Of a stretch of DNA of 64,000 nt, positions 3,652 to 16,425 are shown piece after piece. The notes under the pieces are model-generated. The model did not search any database and was not told the origin of the DNA. It saw only the letters and a program-made list of their open reading frames with translations. Position 1 is the first letter of the stretch; every line of letters begins with the position of its first letter. The stretch covers positions 64,001-128,000 of the forward strand of contig CAWFGO010000002.1 of assembly GCA_963815455.1 (NCBI GenBank). The letters are read 5' to 3'. The DNA is from an uncultured Verrucomicrobiae bacterium. Its GTDB lineage: Bacteria; Verrucomicrobiota; Verrucomicrobiia; Chthoniobacterales; UBA10450. Both the position numbers and the translations under genes were made by a program.

Positions 3652-4359
3652 TTATGCCCCGACGCTCAAATACGGCGACGGATCGACGTGAACGCCGGGC
3701 GACATGGTCGCACTAACCGTCACGCTTTCAAGGTAGCGCCCTTTCGCCGTCGCCGGACGGGCCCGCACCACCGCTTCGATCACAGCGTTGCCGTTTTCCA
3801 CGAGCGCATTTTGTTCAAATGAAAATTTCCCCACCGGCACGGCGACATTGCCATTCTTATCGAGCTTGAACTCGACCCGCCCGGCTTTTACTTCCTGCAC
3901 CGCTTTCGCCGTGTCTTCGGTCACGGTTCCGGTCTTCGGGTTCGGCATCAGTCCGCGAGGGCCGAGCACTTTTCCGAGCTTGCGCACTTCGGCCATCGCC
4001 GTAGGCGTCGCCACCGCCACATCGAAATCCTGAAAACCATCCTGAACTTTCTTAATCAGATCCTCGAACCCGACATGTTCCGCGCCGGCATCCTTCGCCG
4101 CTTGCGCGGCCGCACCCTGGGCAAAAACCAGCACTCGCACCGTTTTCCCGCTGCCGTGCGGAAGCGGACACGTCCCCCGCACCATTTGATCGGATTGTTT
4201 GGGATCGACACTGAGCCGGAACGAAACCGTCACGGTCTGATCGAACTTCGTCGGCGGAAATTTCTTCAACGTCGCGACGGCGTCGCTGAGGTTATAAGAC
4301 TTGGTCCGGTCCACCTGTTCGGCGGCGGCGCGATATCTTTTCGAACGATTGTTTTGCAT
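3652..4359 (-). CDS. rplA: 50S ribosomal protein L1
   Basis: KFDQTV, LGKVLGPRGLMPNPKTGTVT, KAGRVEFKLDKNG. Confidence 0.98.
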   Translation of the reverse strand: MQNNRSKRYRAAAEQVDRTKSYNLSDAVATLKKFPPTKFDQTVTVSFRLSVDPKQSDQMVRGTCPLPHGSGKTVRVLVFAQGAAAQAAKDAGAEHVGFEDLIKKVQDGFQDFDVAVATPTAMAEVRKLGKVLGPRGLMPNPKTGTVTEDTAKAVQEVKAGRVEFKLDKNGNVAVPVGKFSFEQNALVENGNAVIEAVVRARPATAKGRYLESVTVSATMSPGVHVDPSPYLSVGA

Positions 4360-4367
4360 GGCTTTGT

Positions 4368-4396
4368 GCAGTGCGAACGAGCGGAGACTCTCCTGC
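4368..4396 (-). promoter_or_regulatory. Putative L1 autoregulatory (kink-turn-like) site in the rplA leader
   Basis: GCAG-GA-GAG...CTC-GTTCGCA-CTGC bulged stem just upstream of the rplA start. Confidence 0.45.
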
Positions 4397-4413
4397 GGTA
4401 AGTCGGGACGCGC

Positions 4414-4441
4414 ACAATAAAGCAAAGCCACCGGCTGTCAA
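4414..4441 (-). promoter_or_regulatory. Putative sigma70 promoter for rplA-rplJ-rplL
   Basis: TTGACA-N16-TATTGT on the minus strand. Confidence 0.6.
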
Positions 4442-4564
4442 ACCACGAATTAACACCAATAAACACGAATCAGGGAGGATCGCTGTAGCTTCGGCTGTCC
4501 CCGGCCTCTACAGCCGTTCCCGCCGTCCCTCCGCCCGATTCGTGCCTATTCGTGCAATTCGTGT
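4442..4564. repeat. Inverted CACGAAT-type repeat element with nested GTAG hairpin
   Basis: accacgaattaacaccaataaacacgaat...attcgtgcctattcgtgcaattcgtgt; similar CACGGAT-type element at about 46369-46504. Confidence 0.55.
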
Positions 4565-4620
4565 CTCAACCTCGTTTTTGCCTTGCAAAATTTCCCATGA
4601 TCCTGGTAAAAACAGTGATT

Positions 4621-5493
4621 ATGAAACGCCCCACCGTTTATAAACTGTCGATCCTCGCCGTTATCCTGTTTGGCTTGGCCAATCTAACCTCCGCCCGCCC
4701 GATCGAGTTCAGTGAGCTTTCGCTCCTGGTTCGCGCCCGCGAGAGCGAGAACTCAATCAAGAACGACGTTGCCGAGCGCAAATTGATGCATGCGCTGACG
4801 CCGCAACAGGAGAGCAAATTGAAAGCCGAAGGGGCAAGCGATTCGCTGATAAATTCTTTGCGTAATCCAAACCAGATCGTGTCGAAAGATGAAGCGGCTG
4901 CCTTCGAGAGCGCAAGCGCGCAAAAAGCGAAAGCCGCTCCGGCAGGCAGCGTAGGATCGACAACTGGCCGCGCCGAGCAGGGAAAATTATACGTTTTCGA
5001 TGTCGCGCTGGGGCATCCAATCAATCTCAGCCAATGGGGTGGCTATGATTACGAGCTGGCGTTCTATTCCTACCGTTGCGCCGGTGAAGACATTGTCGAG
5101 CCGGTTCTCATCGATCCGGTTCGGACAATCTCTGTGGTCAGCCGAGTTATTCCTACCCAGGGTTCGAGCGAGGATGAAACGTTCGCGGACAATGGTTTCA
5201 CTCGCGATTGGTATCGCCGTCAGCGTTTCATGGCCACCGATAATGATGGCCACCGATTCACGCCCTACGATGCCCGGCGCGATTTGAAGGACGATCGCTT
5301 CAACTTCAGCGACACCGTCGCGGCGAGTTCGTACTCGGCTTCCCGTCCATTAGCCATCGATTGGAGCAGTCCGGTCACAATTGAAGGCGTCCCTTATGCG
5401 CTGTATCCCGTTTACGGCGCCGGCGGTGTCTCGCTTTACTACATCGGCGGTTCGAGCACTTCGGTTAGGCTGGCAGTCAGCACCAACCGATAG
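4621..5493 (+). CDS. Hypothetical secreted protein
   Basis: Long ORF with signal peptide MKRPTVYKLSILAVILFGLANLTSA; no family recognised. Confidence 0.7.
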   Translation: MKRPTVYKLSILAVILFGLANLTSARPIEFSELSLLVRARESENSIKNDVAERKLMHALTPQQESKLKAEGASDSLINSLRNPNQIVSKDEAAAFESASAQKAKAAPAGSVGSTTGRAEQGKLYVFDVALGHPINLSQWGGYDYELAFYSYRCAGEDIVEPVLIDPVRTISVVSRVIPTQGSSEDETFADNGFTRDWYRRQRFMATDNDGHRFTPYDARRDLKDDRFNFSDTVAASSYSASRPLAIDWSSPVTIEGVPYALYPVYGAGGVSLYYIGGSSTSVRLAVSTNR

Positions 5494-5496
5494 AGC

Positions 5497-6864
5497 TCAA
5501 TCAACCGGGATCTCAGCAGCGGAAACGTCCGTTGAAACGGTCGGCCCCGGGGTAGCCGGGCCGTTCCGGATGATCTTTCCCTCCTTCATCACGAACGAGA
5601 CGCGTTCGGTCGCGGTGATGTCGGAAGTCGGATCGCCGGGCATGGCCACGATGTCGGCCAGTTTTCCTTTCTCCAACGTGCCAACTTTCTGCGCGATGCC
5701 GAAAAGTTCGGCGTCGGTTGCCGTTGCAGCTTTCAACGCATCGATCGGCGCCATCCCGAGATCGACCATGAGTTTGAATTCCTTGGCGTTCTGGCCGTGC
5801 GGGAAAACGGCGGCATCCGTTCCGAAGGAAATTTTAACTCCGATTTTCACTGCGTTCCGAAACATTTCTGTGCGCGCCGCCGTCGCCGCTTTCGCTTTGT
5901 CTTGGAGCGGCTTGGGATAATTGCCGATCTTTTGCATGATCCATTCCGACGCCATCAACGTGGGCGTGAGATAAGTTCCTTTCGCTTTCATCTTGGCTAA
6001 CGTATCAGGTTTTAAGAACGAACCGTGCTCGATCGAATCGACCCCGGCGTCGATCGCTTCGCGGGCGGCTTGATCGCCATGGCAATGCACTGCCACTTTC
6101 TTGCGCAAGCGGTGCGATTCATCCACCAGGGCTGCCATTTCTGCCGGCGTCAATTGCGGTGTGTCCACTTCATCGGCTAACGAAAGAACTCCGCCGGAGA
6201 CCGCAGCTTTGATCACATCCGCGCCATTTTTCACTTCGAACCGCACCGCTTTTCGAACGTCATCCGGACTATCGACAATGCCATCGGTGTAATCCGGTTC
6301 GCGCCCAAAAAGAAAATCGCGAAACCCGCTGGTGGGATCGAAATGGCCACCCGTGGCGCCGATTCCCTTCGTCGCCACGAGCATTCTCGGACCGACAATC
6401 ACGCCTTTATTGATCGAATTGCGCAATGCAACATCGACAAACTCGCGGCTGCCAACGAACCGGCTGCCGAGATCGCGCACTGTTGTGAATCCCGCTTCGA
6501 CTGTCGCGCGCGCGTAAGTCGTCGCTTTGATCGCCTGCTCGGCCACGTTGAGATCGAGCTCGTGGAGCCGCCGAACGTTGTAGTCGCCGGAAAAATCCAA
6601 TGTCAGATGCGAATGAGCGTCCATGAATCCCGGCGAGAGCGTGGCATCGCCGAGATCGATAACTTTCGCGGCGTCCGGCACGGCCAGGTTACTGGCAACA
6701 TCGACAATCTTGTCGCCTTGCACGATCACGACAGCGCTCTGTAAAAGCGTCTTGGATTTCCCGTCGAACATGCGGGCCGCTTTGAGGGCAACGACTTGAT
6801 CGGCTGCACGCGCCGAAACTACCAGACACAAGCAAGCGACAAAAATTTGGGAAAGAATCTTCAT
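5497..6864 (-). CDS. Secreted metal-dependent amidohydrolase (Xaa-Pro dipeptidase-like)
   Basis: PGFMDAHSH, GFTTVRDLG, SIEHG, FGTDA, GKLADIV motifs; signal peptide. Confidence 0.9.
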   Translation of the reverse strand: MKILSQIFVACLCLVVSARAADQVVALKAARMFDGKSKTLLQSAVVIVQGDKIVDVASNLAVPDAAKVIDLGDATLSPGFMDAHSHLTLDFSGDYNVRRLHELDLNVAEQAIKATTYARATVEAGFTTVRDLGSRFVGSREFVDVALRNSINKGVIVGPRMLVATKGIGATGGHFDPTSGFRDFLFGREPDYTDGIVDSPDDVRKAVRFEVKNGADVIKAAVSGGVLSLADEVDTPQLTPAEMAALVDESHRLRKKVAVHCHGDQAAREAIDAGVDSIEHGSFLKPDTLAKMKAKGTYLTPTLMASEWIMQKIGNYPKPLQDKAKAATAARTEMFRNAVKIGVKISFGTDAAVFPHGQNAKEFKLMVDLGMAPIDALKAATATDAELFGIAQKVGTLEKGKLADIVAMPGDPTSDITATERVSFVMKEGKIIRNGPATPGPTVSTDVSAAEIPVD

Positions 6865-6914
6865 TGTGCCGGTTTAGAAGTAATCGCTGTGCCTGGCAAG
6901 AAAGGAAACCACCT

Positions 6915-7052
6915 GGAGGGCGCCGCCGTTCCCCGAAAAAGCGATGCGGAGACGCATCGCACTCCTCAAGCTTCGCGAAATGTTACGCACGCTTCCATTA
7001 TTTTCGCGCGCGCATGCGCGCTTTCGGAGTGCGGGGCGTCCTCGCACCGCTT
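6915..7052. repeat. GGAG-family REP-like palindromes
   Basis: aagcgatgcggagacgcatcgcactcc and its inverted partner ggagtgcggggcgtcctcgcaccgctt. Confidence 0.55.
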
Positions 7053-7056
7053 AATC

Positions 7057-8046
7057 TCAATCCCTCGTCAGTGGCCCCATTTTCACCACTTCCAAGTCGC
7101 TCCCTTTCACACGCTTGATCGCGCCCAAGGCCTCGTCGTCCCAGCGATCGTCGGGCGCGCCCGAGATGAACCAGTCGCCGCCGTTGTCGGCCAGGATCAT
7201 GCCGTAGATTTTAAGACAACGCAGAATCACCTGCGCGGCTTCGGGAAATTTGGAGATGTCGTAATCCGCCTTCAATCGCACCCGTAATCCCATCGGCGGC
7301 AGCGATGAGTCTTTGCTTTCGCTGGCATAATGCGATGCGGGCGGCACGTAGGCTCGCTGCGTTTTCTGCACCGTGAATCGCAGCGCGTGGCGAATCTCTT
7401 TTTGCTCCATCACTTCGTCGTAGCGCGCCAGGCCGGGGAAAATCGGCAGACCAGCGGCATCGGCGCTGGTCCAACCGGCCGGACGCGACTTATTGCTCTT
7501 CAAATCGAAAACCGCGCCCGCACCGGCGCGCCACGCCTTACCGTCGGGAGAAGCCGAAAAGATTTCGTAAAGCTTTTCGTTGTCGCGGTCGAGCACCAGA
7601 ACATGGCGGTCGCCATCGGCGTCGGCCTTCGGGCCGCCTTCGATCGGCGCATCAGGCGGAATCGGGTATGGGCCGGGATCGCTTTCGTCGGCGTATTCAA
7701 AAGTGAGCGAGACTTTCGGCTGCGTGCCCGCGACGACGACATACGGAATACCGAGCGGCGCGCCCTCATAAGGCGCCCCGAAATCCGGGTGCAGCGGTTT
7801 GTCGGCGCCGATGCTTTTGATGAACGCCGACGATTTGGCGTCCACCGGCAATTTATCAACCGGCGTGTTCCACGGATTATCGTCGGGAAACGGGCGATAG
7901 CCGCGCAAACTCGTGTTGGGACCGAGATGGCGTTGTTCCTTGGCGGGCGATCCCGCAACCAAAACATCATCGCCGCAGACCGAAGCCAACAACAATCCAG
8001 CAAGGCCCAGTGACAGAATCCGATAATTAGCGTTCGAGGCAGGCAT
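7057..8046 (-). CDS. Secreted protein of unknown function
   Basis: 329-aa ORF with signal peptide and motifs FPDDNPWN, YADESDPGPYPIP, GDRHVL, GWTSADAAGLP. Confidence 0.8.
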   Translation of the reverse strand: MPASNANYRILSLGLAGLLLASVCGDDVLVAGSPAKEQRHLGPNTSLRGYRPFPDDNPWNTPVDKLPVDAKSSAFIKSIGADKPLHPDFGAPYEGAPLGIPYVVVAGTQPKVSLTFEYADESDPGPYPIPPDAPIEGGPKADADGDRHVLVLDRDNEKLYEIFSASPDGKAWRAGAGAVFDLKSNKSRPAGWTSADAAGLPIFPGLARYDEVMEQKEIRHALRFTVQKTQRAYVPPASHYASESKDSSLPPMGLRVRLKADYDISKFPEAAQVILRCLKIYGMILADNGGDWFISGAPDDRWDDEALGAIKRVKGSDLEVVKMGPLTRD

Positions 8047-8052
8047 GGGAAC

Positions 8053-8904
8053 TTATTGTCTGGATATCACAACCGCCTTGGCCAGTTGCTCGCCCGCATC
8101 AGTCAAAAAAAAGAGATAGTTTTTGCCTCGCTCCACCGTCACACGGCGCGTCCCTTTCCCGTCCTCAGCCACGCGCTTTTCTTCCCCCTGCGAGCCCTCC
8201 TTCATCCAGACTTTTGCATCCGGATGGTCCGGCCCGCCGTCCCAAGTCAGCGTGACCGTACCCTCAGATTGCCCATCGGGAATGTTAACGACTGTGGGAT
8301 GGGCCGAGATGGTAGGAGAAGCCGTCGAAGACTGCGTTTTCGGCATTTTGCCGCTGCTCTTAATAGGCGGTGTGGCGGTAGGCGGTTCAACAGGCGCCGC
8401 ATCCGCGCACTCCATGTGCGTTTCGCTGTACCAATTTACCTTTATCGAAGGCGTTGCTTGGTTGTAACCGGTGCCCTCAATCCTGCCGGAAGGCCCGATC
8501 GTGCCGTTATAAACGCCAGTGGTGTTGTTGTTCCAATGAATGATCACGTCGAAGTGATCGTCTTTCATGGTGCCGTCGACAGTGCCGCGGACGTTCGCTT
8601 TGCCTTCGATGCCGGGGCCGCCATCTTTTGGTGTCACATCTATTCTATGATTTGCCTTCCCCGTAATCACAGTTCCGTTCTGGTCCAGCTCGAGGTCCAC
8701 ATTGGTTGAGCCTTGTTTAAACCGCCACCCGTGGCCGACGTTCCATTGAGAACACTGAGCTTCCACGGGCGGAGCCGAAAACGCGAAAATGGATGTGAAC
8801 AAAAATCCACCAAGCGCTAGAGCAAACCACCTGCGACGGATTAGTGCCTTGTCGCCGCTTTGGATCACCGGCGGTGACAGAATTGAATGATGTTTTGTTT
8901 TCAT
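8053..8904 (-). CDS. Array unit F: secreted protein with Cys-bounded beta-rich domain and Ig-like domain, no His tail
   Basis: MKTKHHSILS leader, AxA-like cleavage (VEA/QCSQW), ends of first domain HMECAD. Confidence 0.85.
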   Translation of the reverse strand: MKTKHHSILSPPVIQSGDKALIRRRWFALALGGFLFTSIFAFSAPPVEAQCSQWNVGHGWRFKQGSTNVDLELDQNGTVITGKANHRIDVTPKDGGPGIEGKANVRGTVDGTMKDDHFDVIIHWNNNTTGVYNGTIGPSGRIEGTGYNQATPSIKVNWYSETHMECADAAPVEPPTATPPIKSSGKMPKTQSSTASPTISAHPTVVNIPDGQSEGTVTLTWDGGPDHPDAKVWMKEGSQGEEKRVAEDGKGTRRVTVERGKNYLFFLTDAGEQLAKAVVISRQ

Positions 8905-8935
8905 ATGGTTTGGGTTCTGAAACGTTTTCGTCGAT

Positions 8936-9978
8936 CTAATCGTTGCCTTGGTTCTCATCATCGTCGTGATGATGACGGTTCTTATGCTTTTTAGGCTGGT
9001 CTTCCGTGTCGCTCGATGAAGATTCGTCCGCTTCTGGATGCCGGAGCCTAGACCCTCGGGGCCCTTGGGCCGACGAGTTCTCCGCTCTGACAGTAACAGA
9101 GGCCAGGCGCTCCTCGGAGTCGGTCAGAGTAAAGGTATTTTCCCCTGGCTTTATCGGCACCAATTGTGAACCTTTGCTTCTCAGCGGAGCGACGGACTCG
9201 TCGTCGTTGTTTACCTTAATCCTCACTTGGGCGTTCGGGTGGCCGCTTCCTGCATCCCAAGTCAGACGAGTGGATCCGCTGTTTTGCCCGTCGGGAATGT
9301 TAACGACTGTGGGATTGGCCGAGATGGTAGGAGAAGCCGTCGAAGACTGCGTTTTCGGCATTTTGCCGCTGCTCTTAATTGGCGGCGTGGGCTTCGGCAT
9401 CTTGCCGCTGGACTTAATCGGTGTGGCGGTAGGCGGTCCAACAGGCGCCGCAGCCGCGCAATCAAAATGGTGTCGAGGTAAACCATTTTACGGTTTATCG
9501 AACGGCATTCTTGGTTGTAAGCCGTTCCCTGGATGCCGGAAGCTGCCTCGACCTATTGCGCCGTTATAAACGCCAGTGGTGTTGTTAGCCCAATTAATAT
9601 TACGTTGAAACTGTCGCCTTCACGGTGCCGTTGACTCGACCCTGAACGTACGCTTTTTCGCCGAACATCGCCCTTCCCGTAGTCTAGGTATTCCAAATTA
9701 TATTATGGGTCGCAGTCCATTGACTATTTTGCCATTCTGGTGCAGAGTTCGAATCGAAATGATTGCGCCTTTACCCGAGCCTTGTTTGGACCGCCACCTG
9801 GCCGACATCTATTGCTGACAACTGGCTTCCGCGGAAGAAGCCAACAGCGCGAAAATGGATGTGAACAAGAATCCACCAAGCCCGAGGGCAAACCACCTGG
9901 GACAGATCGAATTGTTTCGATTTTGGTCGCCGCTTTGGGTCACCGGCGCTGACAGAATTAATGATGTTTTGTTTTCAT
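8936..9978 (-). pseudogene. Array unit E: paralogue of unit F with His/Asp tail; several frameshifts (decay or sequencing error)
   Basis: ATG 9978 MKTKHH leader; pieces WFALGLGGFLFTSIFA and AEA-C; intact 3' ORF 8936-9400 ending KKHKNRHHHDDDENQGND. Confidence 0.75.
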
Positions 9979-10021
9979 ATGTTTTGGGTTCTGAGATTTT
10001 TTCTCGACTCAAGATGTCGAT

Positions 10022-10579
10022 CTAATCGTTACCCCTGGTCCTGATCGTCGTGGTCGTGCTGATGGGTCTTTTCCACTGGGATGCGGCCGCCGAAGGGTCG
10101 TCCCCGCAGGACATTCTCTTGCTGCCGACCCAGTTTACCCCTTGGGAGGTAGTACCCTCGATTTTGCCACCAGGGCCGACGCTACCCGTAAAGCGGTATT
10201 GCGTCGTACCTATCGTGAGTTACAGAGTGAAGGAATTTATCTGTGATGTTTCCACTTATTATACCGTCCTGTGCTTGTTCGAGGCAGGCGGCAATATGAG
10301 TGCCGTTCCAGTAAGATTCGCGCTCGTCTGTCCCCAGTTCGCCCTGCTGCAGGTTGACGGACACATTCATCCCATTGCCATTTGAATACCCAGTTGTCCG
10401 CTGACATTCCAACGCTTGCACTGCGCTTGCGCTGGAGAAGGCAATAAGGCGCAGACTGAGATGAACAAGATTCCGGGAAGTCCCAATGCAAATAACCTGC
10501 GAGGGACAGTATTGTTTAGGGTTTTGCCGCCGCTGTACCCTGACCGCGCTGACATGATTGACTGAATTTTTGTTTTCAT
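10022..10579 (-). pseudogene. Array unit D: paralogue of unit A; frameshifted
   Basis: MKTKIQSIMSA...SVCALLPSPAQAQCKRWNVSGQ, near-identical to the unit A leader; ends in a remnant of the shared HDDQDQG-ND tail. Confidence 0.75.
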
Positions 10580-10622
10580 ATGTTTTAGTTCTGAGAGGTT
10601 TCTTCGGCTCAAAGATGTCGAT

Positions 10623-11555
10623 CTAATCGTTGCCCTGGTCCTGATTGTCGTCGTCGTGATGATGATGGTGCTTTCTCTTATTCTTCTTGTGCTTTCCGTG
10701 CTGGTCGTCCTCCGTATCGTTTGATGAAGATTCGTCCGCTTCTGCACTCGGGGCTGGCTTGGAAGGGCTAGGCGCTGGAGTGTGCATTTGAATGAAGCCG
10801 CCCGCTGTTCCGCTGCCAGACACTGGGGTAGTAGCCGGCTTGGGTGTCGGTTTGGGCACTTGAACCCCGTTAGGCACTGTCTGCCCGCTAACGTAGTCCT
10901 CTATTTTGCCGCTGGATTTAGGAAGACTGCCCGGCTTAAAAAAGCTCTCACTCTCGCACGTGACGGTTCTGCTGGCCAGCTCCTTGCCCGCGTAGTACTT
11001 TTTGCCGTCAACTTCAGTTACGACAACAGCGGCGGCGTTGGCACTGCGTCGACTGTGGTTTCCGCCGCCCGCGTCACTCACCTCCCTCAGAACAAAGCGA
11101 TAGCTCTCGCCCCGCCCGACCCGAAACTTACACCCCTTCGGAAAGTCTAGTATCGACGGCGGAAAGATTTTTTGGGGCCCGCCGTTCAAACTAAAATACA
11201 GCGCGACGTGGGGGTGTTTCTCTCCACCCCTCCAGTAGATCGTGGTCGTGCCCTTAGTTTGCCCACCGGGAATGGTAACGATGGGAGGACACATCAGGAC
11301 GAACGGAGGCTCAAACGGGCAATCGCGGACTTCGACCGGGCATCCCTCATCGTTGGCGTCGGGACTTGAGCCCGCGACGGTGACTGGAGGCAACGGGGCG
11401 CAAAGTGCGGCGAACAAGACGCATCCTTTTCCTGCAATCGAGAAGATTGCCGGCCAATAACTAGTTGTTTTCATATAATCGGTTCGCTGCTTCGCGTTTT
11501 TGTCGCCGCTTTGGGTCACCGGCGCTGATAGAATTGGGTGATGTTTTGTTTTCAT
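10623..11555 (-). CDS. Array unit C: secreted protein with Ig-like domain and His/Lys/Asp tail
   Basis: MKTKHHPILSAPVTQSGD leader, internal second start MKTTSYW, tail ADESSSNDTEDDQHGKHKKNKRKHHHHHDDDNQDQGND. Confidence 0.85.
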   Translation of the reverse strand: MKTKHHPILSAPVTQSGDKNAKQRTDYMKTTSYWPAIFSIAGKGCVLFAALCAPLPPVTVAGSSPDANDEGCPVEVRDCPFEPPFVLMCPPIVTIPGGQTKGTTTIYWRGGEKHPHVALYFSLNGGPQKIFPPSILDFPKGCKFRVGRGESYRFVLREVSDAGGGNHSRRSANAAAVVVTEVDGKKYYAGKELASRTVTCESESFFKPGSLPKSSGKIEDYVSGQTVPNGVQVPKPTPKPATTPVSGSGTAGGFIQMHTPAPSPSKPAPSAEADESSSNDTEDDQHGKHKKNKRKHHHHHDDDNQDQGND

Positions 11556-11680
11556 TGTTTTGGGTTCTGAGATTTTTCCCAGATTCAAGATGTCGATCTA
11601 ATCGTTGCCGCTATCATCATCGTTGTCGTAATGGTGAATGGGTGTTTTTCTTGTGCTTTGCCGCTGCCGGTTGCTTCGGC

Positions 11681-12208
11681 CTAGTCACGGCACTCCATCA
11701 AATCCGTGGTGGACCAGCGTACCTTCTTGTTAGGGCTTCTCTTTTCGTAACCCATGCCGCCTGTGATCTGCCCTCGTTTTTTGCCTTCACGTTGAATCTC
11801 GAATCGAGGCCTGATCGTTGCGTCATAAACGCCCGTAAGCCCATTACTCCAAGAAATCTCGAAATGGATTTTATCTGCCGAAACCCAACCCGCGACTTTA
11901 CCCTCACCTGCTGTGCTCCTCCAATCCGCGGTCAGATACTGTGCGGTCCCTGTAAAGCGGCCCCCCTGGAAAGATAATGACAACTGATTCCGTTGTACTT
12001 GGTTATCCTGCGTAAACTCAAAATAAGAGATGGACCATCCTTTGGGGCACTGGCCTTTCACTGGAGAAGATAAAAACAGGATAACTAAAAGTAAGGCACT
12101 AAGACCCACGACGGGACGCACTCGACGAATCGGACGAGTGCTTTCGATTGCCTGGCTAGAAGTTTTGGCTCCAGATGCTGGCAGAATTGAATGATGTTTT
12201 GTTTTCAT
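11681..12208 (-). CDS. Array unit B: secreted Cys-bounded beta-rich protein; tail remains only as a remnant after the stop
   Basis: MKTKHHSIL leader, VKG/QCPKGW...LMECRD; tail remnant at 11598-11680. Confidence 0.85.
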   Translation of the reverse strand: MKTKHHSILPASGAKTSSQAIESTRPIRRVRPVVGLSALLLVILFLSSPVKGQCPKGWSISYFEFTQDNQVQRNQLSLSFQGGRFTGTAQYLTADWRSTAGEGKVAGWVSADKIHFEISWSNGLTGVYDATIRPRFEIQREGKKRGQITGGMGYEKRSPNKKVRWSTTDLMECRD

Positions 12209-12250
12209 TGTTTTGGGTTCTGAGATTTTTCTCGGCTTGAAGATGTCGAT

Positions 12251-12850
12251 CTAATCGTTGCCCTGCTCCTGATCGTCGTCGTGATGATGATGCTTTTTCT
12301 TATTCTTTTTGTGCTTTTTGTGCCAATCCTGCGTGTCGTTGGATGAAGATTCGGACATTGAGCTAGCGCCGGTTTTTTGCGGATTTGCATCCGCGCACTT
12401 CATGCTCCTGCTGCTGACCCAGTACACTCCGCTGGCGTCCCTGGCGCCGATATAACCTTCGATTATGCCACTAGCGCCGATGGTGCCCGTATAGCGGCGT
12501 GGAAGCCCATCTACGGTGTATGCCATCGTGAAGGCATTGCCGGAGATGTTTCCACTTATTGCATGGCCGGCCGTCGTCCCCGTAAGATTCGCACTCGCCC
12601 CTTCCCATTTACCCTGCCGCAGGTTGAGTGAAGAAATTCCCCCATTGCTCGTCCGCATTTCCCATTGTCCGCTGACATCCCAACGCTTGCACTGCGCTTG
12701 CGCTGGAGAAGGCAATAAGGCGCAGACTGAGATGAGCAAGATTCCGAAAAGTCCCAGGGCAAATGACCTGCCAGGGACGGTATTGTTTAGTTTTTGGTCA
12801 ACGCCTTTGGCATCCGCCGCTGATAGAGTTGAATTGTATTTTGTTTTCAT
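12251..12850 (-). CDS. Array unit A (first gene): secreted Cys-bounded beta-rich protein with His/Lys/Asp tail
   Basis: MKTKYNSTLSA leader, AQA/QCKRWDVSGQW...SMKCAD, tail SSSNDTQDWHKKHKKNKKKHHHHDDDQEQGND. Confidence 0.88.
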   Translation of the reverse strand: MKTKYNSTLSAADAKGVDQKLNNTVPGRSFALGLFGILLISVCALLPSPAQAQCKRWDVSGQWEMRTSNGGISSLNLRQGKWEGASANLTGTTAGHAISGNISGNAFTMAYTVDGLPRRYTGTIGASGIIEGYIGARDASGVYWVSSRSMKCADANPQKTGASSMSESSSNDTQDWHKKHKKNKKKHHHHDDDQEQGND

Positions 12851-12890
12851 ATGCTTTGGGTTTTGAAACGGAATTGTCTTTAACCGTCAA

Positions 12891-12917
12891 CGCGCAGGCC
12901 GGTGGCAAATCACGCCA
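12891..12917 (-). promoter_or_regulatory. Putative ECF promoter for the array
   Basis: TGGCG-N18-CGCG, same spacing as TGTCC-N18-CGCG at 45689-45715. Confidence 0.5.
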
Positions 12918-13004
12918 TTTTTTTTGTTACTTTTTCCGCAACCGGTGTGTCATGATCGGGCCGCAGGCGCGGTAATCTGGATTTTCGCGCGCGAAATTAT
13001 CCCG

Positions 13005-13631
13005 GTGAAATCATCTGCCCTCGATTCTGGAGCCTCCGAACAGGAGGGCGAAACGGCAACGCCAAACAAAGGCGAGGTGACGCGATGGCTGATCGCCGGC
13101 AGCGCGGGCGATGCTCACGCGCTCGAGTCTTTGCTCCCGCTGGTCTATGAAGAGCTGCATCGCCAGGCCGTCAGCTTCTTTCGCCGGGAACGCGCGGGAC
13201 ACACGCTTCAACCGACGGCATTGGTGAACGAAGTTTATCTGCGCCTCATCAATCAGCACGAGGTGAGCTGGCAGAATCGCGCGCAATTTTTCGGGATCGC
13301 CGCGCAAATGATGCGGCGCATCCTGGTAAGTCACGCCCGCGGCCGGGATGCGAAAAAGCGGGGTGGCGCAGGCCAGCAGATTACCTTGCAGGAGGAAATG
13401 GCGGCCGCGCCCGAACGCGACCTGAATCTGCTCGCCCTCGACGATGCGCTGACCAGGCTGGAGACGGTTGATCCGGACAAAAGTCGAATGGTGGAGCTGC
13501 GTTTCTTTAGCGGATTGTCGGTGGAAGAGACGGCGGAAGTAATGGGAGTTTCGTCGCGGACGATTGACCGGCAATGGCAAACGGCAAAAGCATGGCTGCA
13601 CCGGGAAATGAGCGCGGGAAAAGCGGCGTGA
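13005..13631 (+). CDS. ECF sigma factor, TIGR02999/ECF43-like (kinase-associated)
   Basis: LLPLVYEELHRQA, HTLQPTALVNEVYLRL, VELRFFSGLS, TIDRQWQTAKAWL; stop overlaps the kinase start; exact start uncertain. Confidence 0.92.
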   Translation: MKSSALDSGASEQEGETATPNKGEVTRWLIAGSAGDAHALESLLPLVYEELHRQAVSFFRRERAGHTLQPTALVNEVYLRLINQHEVSWQNRAQFFGIAAQMMRRILVSHARGRDAKKRGGAGQQITLQEEMAAAPERDLNLLALDDALTRLETVDPDKSRMVELRFFSGLSVEETAEVMGVSSRTIDRQWQTAKAWLHREMSAGKAA

Positions 13632-16310
13632 CCTCAGAGAAGTGGAAGCAAGTCGAGGCGCTCTTCGAGCAGGCACTTGAAGTTCCGACTGCCGAACGGC
13701 CTCAATTTTTGCAAAGGATCGGTGACGACGAACTGCGTCGCGAGGTCGAGTCACTGCTTCAGGCCCACAATCAAGCCGGCGCTTTTATCGACGAACCGGA
13801 TCACTTCATTTCAACTGAAAGTCTGGAAGAAAATGGCGGTAGCTTTTTGCCCGGCGAGATCATCGATCGCTATCGCATTATCCGCGAGGTCGGGCGCGGC
13901 GGAATGGGCGCGGTTTTTCTGGCCGAGCGCGCCGACGATCAATATCAGAAACAGGTTGCGATCAAGCTGATCAAGCGCGGCACGGATACCGATTCTGTGC
14001 TGCGCCATTTTCGCAACGAGCGGCAGATTCTCGCCGGCTTCGATCATGCCAACATTGCCCGGCTCTTTGATGGCGGTACGACTGAGAGTGGTCTGCCCTA
14101 TTTCGTGATGGAGTACATCGAGGGACTTCCGATCGACGAGTACCTGCAACACACACGCGCTCTCGGTCGTTGAACGGTTGAAGCTCTTCCGCGAAGTCTG
14201 CGCCGCTGTTTCCTACGCCCATCGTCATCTTGTTATTCATCGGGACATCAAACGCTCAAATATTCTGATCACGGCGGACGGCGTGTCCAAGCTGCTCGAC
14301 TTCGGGATTGCAAAAATCCTTCAGCAAGGGGACCAGCCGCTGGCGACGATGACGGGGATGCGGCTGATGACGCCCGAGTGCGCCAGCCCGGAGCAGGTGC
14401 GAGGTCAGCCGGTGACTACGGCGAGTGATGTCTATTCGTTAGGCCTGGTGCTGTATGAATTACTCTGCGGCCGGGCGCCTTATCGATTCCCCAGTCAGAC
14501 ACCGCACGAAATCGCGCGCGTGATTACCGAGACCGAGCCGAAGAAGCCGAGCACGGCCTTCGCTCGAAGCGATGGAAGTTCACAAATTCCAAATCCCAAA
14601 ATATTGCGGGGCGATCTCGACAACATCGTGCTGATGGCGTTGCGCAAGGAGCCGGAGCGGCGCTACCAATCAGTAGAGCAATTCTCCGAAGATATCCGGC
14701 GGCACCTGGAAGCGCGGCCCGTTCACGCGCGCAAAGACACTTTCGGCTATCGCTCCGCCAAATTCGTGCGACGAAACAAGGCCGCGCTCGCCGCGGCCGC
14801 GCTCGTATTTCTTGTTCTGGTCGGCGGCATAGTTGCGACGAGCCGGCAGGCTCATATTGCCACGCGGGAAAAGACTCGCGCGGAGCGGCGCTTCAACGAC
14901 GTGCGCAAGCTGGCCAACAGCGTCTTGTTCGATTACCACGATGCGATCAAGGACTTGCCCGGCGCGACCAAGGTGCGGGAGCGATTGGTCAAGGATGGTT
15001 TGACTTACCTCGACAGTCTGGCCGGCGAAGCGCACGGCGACCCTGCCTTGCAGCGCGAGCTCGCCGCCGCTTACGAGAAAGTCGGCGACGTGCGCGGAGG
15101 AGAATCGAGCGGCAGCCTTGGCGACCTAGCTGGGGCGCTGGAGAGTTACACGAAGTCGCTCAGGATTCGCGAAGCCCTGGTAGCTCTGAATCCCAATGAC
15201 GCGCAGGCACGGCGCGGCCTCGCCAGCAGCCACCAAAAAATTGGCTACCGGCTGCTCGACACCGGCGAGGCGAGCAATGGCTTGGAGCATCTTCGGAAAG
15301 CTCTAACGCTTTACCTCGACCTGACGCGGGAACAGCCTGCCAATGACGACCTTCAGCTCGAGTTCGTCGATACCTACGACAAGCTTGGGCAAGCGATGAA
15401 AGTGCAGGGTGATCTCGTCGGCGCGCTTAAACAATATCGCGCAGCCTCGGCCATCTGCGAAGGGCCTGCCGCCCGCCATCCGCAAGACCAAAAGTACCGT
15501 CGCGCACTCTGGACCACCTACGAGCACACGGCGGATGTGCTGTATTTACAAGAAGCAGGCGCTGAAGCCCTCGCCGCCAACAGCAAAGCGCTCGCGCTGG
15601 GAGAAGCGTTGATCGCGGACGACCCCATCAACGCCGATTACCGCCGCGGCCTGGTGCTGAACTATAAGCGTGGTGGCGACTATCGCAGATGGACCGACCC
15701 GCGTGGCGCACTGGAGTACTTCCGCAGGGCGGTAGCACTCGACGAGGAGTTGCTCACGGCGGACCCGGCTAATGCGTTAACCCGTAAGGATCTTGGATAC
15801 TTGCACAAGAGGATAGCCGACTTCCTGGGGAATCTGCACGACGACTCTCAAGCTCTCTTGCACTTCCGTAAGGCGCTGGAGGCTTATCAACAGGTGGTCA
15901 CAGACGCCCCCACAGACTTGATCTCGCGATTCCTGGTCGCCACTTGTCGCGGTGGCGTGGCTCAGAGCCAGGCACGGCTGGGCGAGGTTGATCCTGCGCT
16001 GCAAGAATGTGGCAAAGCGATTGCCCTCCTCGGAGAGATTACTGAAGACGCGACAAACGCTCGTCAGCGGTTGAATAGAGCTCAGGCGTATGAAAATCTT
16101 GGCTCTGCCTACCTCGACGTGGCCACGTCCCCGAAAGCATCGACCAGCGAGACCACTCAGCGCATGAGCGCTGCTCGCGACATGTATCGGGAAAGCCTGA
16201 ATGTCCTCGATGACTTGCGTAGTCGCGGCATCTTGAACGCGGCCGACGAGGTTTGGGCGAAGGACATCGCTGGCCAGCTCGCCAAATGCGACACGGCTTT
16301 AGGCAAATAA
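13628..16310 (+). CDS. Membrane Hanks-type Ser/Thr kinase with extracytoplasmic TPR domain; +1 frameshift near 14144, probably an error
   Basis: GRGGMGAV, VAIK, HRDIK, DFG, SDVYSLG, one transmembrane helix, TPR-like helices; joins ORFs 13574-14173 and 14178-16310. Confidence 0.9.
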
Positions 16311-16425
16311 GCGCAGGCCAGTCATTTCGAGCTCTGCGTTCCGGTTTACTCCTGAGTATTCACGGTCTCGCGTAAAAGGCAGAAACGTCTTGTTTCGCCT
16401 TGAGCGCTTCGTTTCAATCGCTCGC

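Follow-up and report, generated by a model that had tools for sequence, protein, structure and literature searches.

The locus described here lies in a 64,000-nucleotide stretch (hereafter the window) of contig CAWFGO010000002.1, from the genome of an uncultured Verrucomicrobiae bacterium (assembly GCA_963815455.1), presumably a soil organism of the Chthoniobacterales type. This genome (G000) comprises 3.6 Mb in seven contigs; G001 designates its congener, and the other G numbers used below designate relatives. Between an amidohydrolase gene and a CocE-type hydrolase gene sits an accessory block that holds a row of six genes (c1 to c6), a companion gene and, in divergent orientation, the genes of a sigma factor and a kinase (Table 1). 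The row is a tandem array of paralogs for predicted exported proteins composed of four exchangeable modules. It is probably reshuffled by ordinary homologous recombination and probably expressed from one promoter under a divergent, kinase-activated sigma factor of the extracytoplasmic function (ECF) type.

All six genes begin on the minus strand with ATGAAAACAAAA, at positions 12850, 12208, 11555, 10579, 9978 and 8904, in agreement with a preliminary description of this DNA as a row of six co-oriented genes starting MKTK. An MKTK start is also found on five other open reading frames (ORFs) of the genome and is not by itself diagnostic of the array. The genes are joined by five related junctions, each containing AACGATTAGATCGAC; a search of the genome itself, as the preliminary description had proposed, places this sequence in the five junctions and nowhere else in 3.6 Mb. 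A 15-nt core is identical in all five copies. The junctions had been called one and the same repeat, which overstates the case: over 130 nt they are 75–85% identical in all 10 pairs, with a longest exact match of 40 nt. Their non-coding linkers are 86% identical within G000 and 71% identical to those of other genomes. Mean DNA identity among the array genes falls from 0.80 in the linker, 0.76 in the tail and 0.70 in the leader to 0.62 in the barrel and 0.61 in the immunoglobulin (Ig)-like domain, compared with shuffled baselines of 0.53–0.59. The ends are thus more alike than the middles, as first described, but the divergent middles are themselves homologous modules, because module profiles place a barrel in c1, c2, c4, c5 and c6 and an Ig-like domain in c3, c5 and c6. 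A terminal QGND before the stop, which had been attributed to every junction, closes an intact ORF in c1 and c3 only; c6 ends in its Ig domain and lacks the tail, the c2 reading frame closes behind the barrel and its tail sequence lies out of frame, and c4 and c5 are frameshifted.

The frameshifts number two to four in c4, which also has one stop, and four to nine in c5, the count varying with the reference. Because frameshifts are far fewer in the comparison loci (about two in 21 loci, or ~20 kb, plus the split of the kinase gene, compared with 6–13 in the 1.6 kb of c4 and c5), the decay of these two genes is likely to be real rather than a local assembly error. The G+C content of the array is 52.8%, versus ~59.5% in the flanking genes, and an Rfam scan of positions 6800–13200 gave no matches. 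Contigs of two DNA sequencing runs cover only pieces of the array; joints seen in such contigs, for example 8929–12240 and 11524–9962, derive from relatives mapped via repeats and were not used. Elsewhere in the window, at 3652–6864, the rplA-rplJ-rplL genes are preceded by a hypothetical gene and the amidohydrolase gene, not by rplK, and the gene content of the site beyond the amidohydrolase gene differs between relatives.

Table 1. Features of the array and its accessory block (positions in the window)
Feature	Positions	Strand	Description
c1	12251..12850	-	199 aa, intact: leader + barrel + Lys/His/Asp tail (QGND)
Junction linker c1/c2	12209..12250	-	Non-coding, 42 nt
c2	11598..12208	-	Leader + divergent barrel (175-aa ORF 11681-12208), then out-of-frame tail remnant
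Junction linker c2/c3	11556..11597	-	Non-coding
c3	10623..11555	-	310 aa, intact: leader + degenerate Ig-like domain + linker + tail; barrel absent
Second in-frame start (MKTT) inside c3 leader	11474	-	
Junction linker c3/c4	10580..10622	-	
c4	10022..10579	-	Broken: leader + barrel + tail; nearest paralog c1
Junction linker c4/c5	9979..10021	-	
c5	8936..9978	-	Broken: leader + barrel + Ig + tail; nearest paralog c6
Junction linker c5/c6	8905..8935	-	31 nt, shortened
c6	8053..8904	-	283 aa, intact: leader (1-50) + barrel (51-166) + Pro-rich linker + Ig-like (194-283)
Companion gene	7057..8046	-	329 aa, predicted secreted; no Pfam match; invariant D-N-G motif at 7188-7180
Predicted ECF-type promoter	12889..12917	-	TGGCGTGATT-N10-CTGCGCGTT behind an A-tract, 38 nt before c1 ATG
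Divergent ECF sigma factor	12924..13631	+	TIGR02999 over cut-off; QPTA motif, ECF43-like
Hanks-type Ser/Thr kinase with TPRs	13574..16310	+	Split near 14143-14178
Accessory block, 9.5 kb	6865..16389	.	Between amidohydrolase gene and CocE-type hydrolase gene

Module composition and predicted fold

Module profiles resolve the array proteins into four parts: a long leader for export, a barrel with a predicted avidin fold, an Ig-like domain and a Lys/His/Asp tail. Judged by these profiles, the array genes are paralogs of one unnamed family. A search with c6 found 85 relatives, and at 90% identity 74 of 85 clusters had a single member; a profile of 48 sequences matched 909 clusters (50% identity) at E<=1e-10 among 1.84 billion representatives. 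That the proteins belong to no named family, as had been noted at the outset, is confirmed by the database searches: Pfam gave nothing above cut-off for the array genes, NCBIfam matched none of 48 family members, and PADLOC and PHROGs matched none of five. The best hit of a PDB sequence search had E>=0.086, with avidin absent among the matches at E<=1, and the Avidin profile PF01382 matched none of the 48 members at E<=0.01. The Atlas leads for the barrel were all below 0.9 (OAA lectin 0.85, Avidin 0.84). Within the literature listings that were searched, a scope without subscription papers and supplements, no description of the family or of the locus was found.

Profile searches and structure prediction of the mature domains, the course recommended in the preliminary description, leave the family unnamed and yield a predicted avidin-fold barrel and an Ig-like domain. 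The AlphaFold model of c6 has two confident domains (mean predicted local distance difference test score, pLDDT, 81.8). The barrel (residues about 51–166) is predicted to be eight-stranded and antiparallel with avidin topology. It matches avidins, designed barrels and a domain of quinohemoprotein amine dehydrogenase at Z 9.6–11.4 (several avidins at Z ~10), with a root-mean-square deviation (rmsd) of 2.3–3.0 A over 94–103 residues and 8–15% identity. Residues 194–283 are Ig/FnIII-like (Z 8–9.7), and the barrel-then-Ig order matches 1jju with a Foldseek E of 5e-5. Cys51 and Cys166 are invariant in 87 barrels and the core Gly and Trp residues are nearly fixed; residues 87–104, the hairpin of strands 3 and 4, are hypervariable in length and variable in sequence. 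In avidins the loop between strands 3 and 4 serves as a lid over the ligand. In a comparison by eye with the biotin-site motif, the polar Asn/Tyr positions appear to be replaced (F/I/L at 62, Ala at 84). An RR pair, which bears on export by twin-arginine translocation (Tat), is present in 40 of 71 leaders, and a lipoprotein reading of the leader was rejected because VEAQ or AQAQ precedes the Cys.

Fusions of the barrel or Ig modules to tachylectin and CAP domains were found in two of 24 proteins scanned, and fusions to AbfB and CHAT domains in two of 64; longer fusion proteins were absent among 7999 candidates, which is weak evidence. In G190 (L099:7672-11015), two tandem CHAT-domain proteins have similar N-termini and different C-termini, and one ends in the Ig module of the family. 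In G001 (L098:2913-4019), an Ig module is fused to an unnamed domain that has no Pfam or NCBIfam match; its Cys...His pattern resembles that of NlpC/P60-type hydrolases.

Exchange of genes and modules

The family profile matched seven of 355 genomes of the bacterial family, G000 included. Two of these, G001 and G190, were rejected as array carriers because their matches are lone Ig domains fused to other proteins, so that arrays are present in five of 355 genomes, a count that may be low in view of incomplete and short-read genomes that could hide arrays. A match of 30 nt in G033 was dropped as too short. The arrays of G030, G035 and G153 stand beside the same amidohydrolase and/or CocE genes, and their number, order and cargo differ: G035 has four genes, G030 seven and G153 nine, besides a second small site; the two genes of G191 are at another site. 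The 9.5-kb block is absent in G001 and in six of 19 loci from other relatives (the 19 include one from G003), because there the amidohydrolase gene lies within ~1 kb of CocE. The polymorphic repertoire first proposed is borne out in so far as one and the same site varies in gene content and order from genome to genome, across genera.

A wider species scan gave 14 loci, of which 12 are titled as Blastocatellia-group Acidobacteriota and two as Verrucomicrobiae, the latter not counted as independent. Two or more barrel genes are present in 10 of the 12 Acidobacteriota loci, a divergent winged-helix and PD40 regulator in nine and the companion gene in three; the MKTK junction is missing there, and the DNA in common is mainly the Ig domain. 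In L051–L063, Blastocatellia arrays of barrel and Ig modules are mixed with a second barrel type behind the divergent winged-helix and PD40 regulator.

Across 92 family proteins, the modules occur in 11 combinations. Pairwise identities of barrel and Ig are uncorrelated (rho 0.04, 1326 pairs), and in the 38 proteins that combine all three of leader, barrel and Ig, the conflict between barrel and Ig trees (494) far exceeds that in 20 column shuffles (34 +/- 14.5, maximum 62), as does the conflict between leader and barrel trees (254 versus 39 +/- 13.5). Exact tracts run through parts of genes: 56 nt at the signal-peptide end of c1 and c4, 63 nt in the barrel-Ig linker of c5 and c6, and 193 nt over the Ig and junction of two G153 genes, beside barrels that are 77% identical. 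All three runs exceed permutations (p<=0.002), while those of three ortholog controls do not (p 0.055, 0.18 and 0.37). In third-position (synonymous) divergence, 18 of 66 gene pairs show a difference between barrel and Ig (p<0.05), with the barrel the older every time, a pattern not predicted by protein constraint alone. One type of barrel has 92% identity between G030 and G035; in G153, where it occurs with an Ig, identity is 65–67%. Given the strong conflict of the barrel and Ig trees and the near-identical tracts inside genes, we read the modules as having been shuffled as well as whole genes.

The junction repeat had been put forward as a handle for swapping whole genes. In support, the leader and junction also front unrelated cargo, namely the 329-aa companion gene in G035 and G153; but the array genes are paralogs, and what is exchanged is often one module within a gene. 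The Lys/His/Asp tail likewise terminates non-barrel genes in G030, and Ig-ended genes use other junction sequences. A recA gene is present in G000, and RecA-type crossovers or conversions could occur in the conserved blocks (junction and leader, barrel-Ig linker, Ig and junction). Such events would remove genes, duplicate them or bring in new ones, and would move barrels from one carrier to another; spent copies such as c4, c5 and the c2 tail would then decay.

Several observations weigh against this account of the array. Synonymous divergence over all pairs is equal (Ig 0.46, barrel 0.47), the pairs are not independent and the p-values are uncorrected, and the gathering of homologs with one query can depress the barrel-Ig correlation. 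Leaders are no more alike on one contig (0.46, n=20) than between contigs (0.54). The array variation was seen between genera and species, the read sets being contigs only and mostly of relatives. Because exact runs of at most 40 nt in the junctions are low for frequent RecA crossover, recombination events may be rare and old.

Plain birth-and-death duplication would leave recombination incidental and attribute the kept ends to constraint on the signal peptide, start and tail. The A-rich 5' linker and the MKTK start, itself found on other ORFs, could help translation or export; the leaders show no within-contig excess of identity, and two of the six copies have decayed. This reading, however, fits poorly with module trees that conflict far beyond shuffles and with homogenised synonymous and non-coding sites, including the 193-nt tract over Ig and junction; nor would it lead us to expect a junction core that persists where the tail is untranslated, as in c2 and at locus L031. 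It is largely refuted by the tree-conflict and exact-tract tests, and we regard it as improbable.

The absence of an integrase, part of the preliminary description, was upheld: attC-like sites (RYYYAAC...GTTRRRY) number zero in 6.5 kb over the array, whereas the same script found 4–11 attC strand matches (~123 nt) beside each of four intI loci in G000. Folding of the junction strands is no better than that of shuffled sequences (z -1.40 to 0.09), there is no local recombinase and the nearest tyrosine recombinase lies ~280 kb from the array. Integron, hairpin and site-specific readings were rejected on these grounds. That the junction, with its invariant core, is instead the target of a site-specific recombinase acting in trans, such as the genome's IntI (three matches above the TIGR02249 cut-off, on other contigs or more than 600 kb away), which would make the genes true mobile cassettes, is very improbable, since swaps also occur inside genes and Ig-ended genes carry other junction sequences. 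The intI loci of G000 (C1:1718441, C1:1495265, C3:784758 and C2:708045) comprise three full and one partial integron integrases beside the ~123-nt attC arrays.

Regulatory genes, companion gene and possible function

As described in PMC13147305 and PMC8999054, the hallmarks of ECF43 sigma factors are an adjacent kinase and a Thr-bearing sigma-2.2 motif without DAED. The sigma factor beside the array has the sigma-2.2 sequence HTLQPTALVNE, with Thr present and DAED absent, next to the Hanks-type kinase; it was scored with TIGR02999 and PF07638 and is ECF43-like by these hallmarks. The split of the kinase gene is probably a one-base assembly indel: contigs of the two runs lack one base at 14143, and the G030 counterpart is a single ORF of 898 aa. 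The sigma and kinase genes are divergent from the arrays of G000, G030, G153 and G191, and an A-tract followed by TGGCGYGAWY-N10-CYGCGCGTT (29 nt) precedes the arrays of the same four genomes.

Across the 355 genomes this motif, a putative promoter, has 37 sites in 27 genomes, versus nine for a reversed control, and 24 of the 37 are exactly 29 nt long. Among 32 sites examined, all 19 of 29 nt precede an ORF, mostly with a signal-peptide-like start, compared with 5 of 13 sites of other lengths. Because the pattern was built from array sites, only ten other genomes are independent. Control of the array by the divergent ECF43-type pair is likely, and the motif-bearing genes across the family form a candidate regulon of TIGR02999 sigma factors. 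Two findings count against such control: an ECF gene lies within 1.5 kb at only 7 of 17 motif loci, and the G035 array has neither the ECF and kinase genes nor the motif. The 29-nt motif also precedes repeat-rich surface-protein genes with signal-peptide-like starts at L123, L127–L130, L133, L134, L144 and L146–L150. Directly after the G030 array, at L013:2353-7260, a 1636-aa RHS protein with a peptidase-C39-like domain has its own copy of the motif.

The companion gene is 85–89% identical in G030, G035 and G153, which represent three genera. Its family is unnamed and very large: all 8000 scored candidates match, the nearest 28 at 83–95%, and the Atlas places it in unnamed clusters. The companion model is confident (pLDDT 92.7). 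Its fold matches are weak, at Z 3.3–4.2 and an rmsd of 4.2–6.4 A over 119–178 residues, with Z in an unreliable range, and the top rows are consistently double-psi-barrel glycan proteins, with MltA-type transglycosylases in five of the first 14 and expansins also present. The family alignment contains an invariant D255-N-G, which we take to resemble the catalytic D-x-G-G motif of MltA-type enzymes. It is possible, on the predicted structure, that the companion represents a new glycan-cutting family.

Taken with the lectin, CAP, AbfB and CHAT fusions and the RHS/peptidase-C39 gene of G030, the companion resemblance favours a role for the array proteins as variable extracellular binders in biotic contact. 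On this proposal, the kinase would phosphorylate the ECF43-type sigma factor, which would fire the 29-nt promoter in response to an envelope or biotic cue. In what is the weakest step, the barrels would be variable binding domains whose specificity is set by the length-variable hairpin of strands 3 and 4, displayed outside the cell with the conserved MltA-like glycan enzyme for contact with other organisms. Two points speak against it: the companion scores (Z<=4.2) fall in the unreliable range noted above, and a fold match shows no function, so that the binder role is a prediction.

The main rival keeps the same recombination but sees the barrels as periplasmic inhibitors or immunity proteins against incoming wall hydrolases or toxins, an esaG-like bank beside a secreted MltA-like enzyme. 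The companion's five MltA-type matches, its expansin matches and its invariant D-N-G would suit this reading, as would the G030 gene with the shared promoter motif adjoining that array. The inhibitors MliC/PliC and AprI are disulfide-closed eight-stranded barrels. MliC and AprI are absent from the 50 listed fold matches of the barrel, a listing that does not exclude them; the companion is conserved, unlike a polymorphic cognate toxin, no toxin gene is present in the G000 block, and the lectin-domain fusions favour binding or adhesion. The account in PMC8999054 of ECF43 pairs that answer predation or polymyxin would fit a defensive role, but overall we consider the inhibitor reading rather unlikely. 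More speculative, and doubtful at present, is the extension of the binder proposal to an inducible, antibody-like repertoire in abundant soil bacteria, in which a kinase-sigma switch would deploy a bank of avidin-fold binders together with the conserved wall-cutting enzyme against competitors or predators. The barrels would pass between genera on leaders, Ig domains and tails common to all, and in the Acidobacteria a different membrane sensor would control the same bank.

Relation to known systems

The cargo of the array belongs to a large family without a name (909 clusters), which is found in two major soil phyla of barely known secreted biology and may amount to a natural collection of small barrels, closed by a disulfide and variable in their lid loops. 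The locus also gives a promoter motif and a regulon that can be tested for an ECF43-type sigma factor of a verrucomicrobium, and the companion model is a first lead to the structure of a very widespread hypothetical protein. In fold, the barrels resemble agroavidin, shwanavidin and bradavidin, and the barrel plus Ig resembles the alpha chain of quinohemoprotein amine dehydrogenase; they differ in their 8–15% identity, in lacking an Avidin Pfam match and in forming a hypervariable array of paralogs, not one biotin-binding protein or one domain of an enzyme. The EcfK-PknS and EcfP-PknT pairs (PMC13147305, PMC8999054) likewise have an adjacent kinase and no DAED (with QPTA here for the consensus QTTA); they are known to control a type VI system and resistance to polymyxin, whereas the predicted regulon here consists of exported proteins. 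With integrons and clusters of attC sites lacking integron integrases (CALIN), the array shares a co-oriented row of genes with related sequences between them, but it has neither attC core sites nor hairpins, and its cargo is paralogous with intragenic swaps.

The preliminary description recognised no system at this locus; the arrangement is nevertheless of a known kind, represented by the lpl and esaG genes of S. aureus and by streptococcal tipC. According to Garrett et al. (2022, PMC9484751), tipC and esaG arrays are tandem immunity genes that recombine through conserved blocks. As here, non-identical tandem paralogs have conserved blocks (in tipC, the gene start and end) and variable middles, and genes are gained, lost or made mosaic by homologous recombination with no integrase. 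Theirs are immunity proteins tied to type VII toxins in Firmicutes, whereas the proteins described here are multi-module and predicted to be exported, lack a cognate toxin in the G000 block and are attached to an ECF and kinase pair. The lpl cluster on the S. aureus island nuSa-alpha, according to Tsuru and Kobayashi (2008, PMC2568036), is organised in junction-spanning units: paralogs of exported proteins lie in an accessory island, the 5' and 3' trees of one ORF conflict, and the 3' end, the intergenic region and the next 5' end travel together, as the Ig and junction do in G153. The lpl genes have one central conserved block and variable ends and encode lipoproteins; in the present array conservation falls on the junction and leader, several handles exist and the proteins lack a lipobox. 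By sequence comparison, three of five features of the lpl, esaG and tipC arrays recur here, namely tandem non-identical paralogs, conserved blocks flanking variable regions, and conflicting phylogenies or mosaic genes. The probable mechanism of reshuffling is thus of the lpl/esaG/tipC kind, and the cargo is a family without a name.

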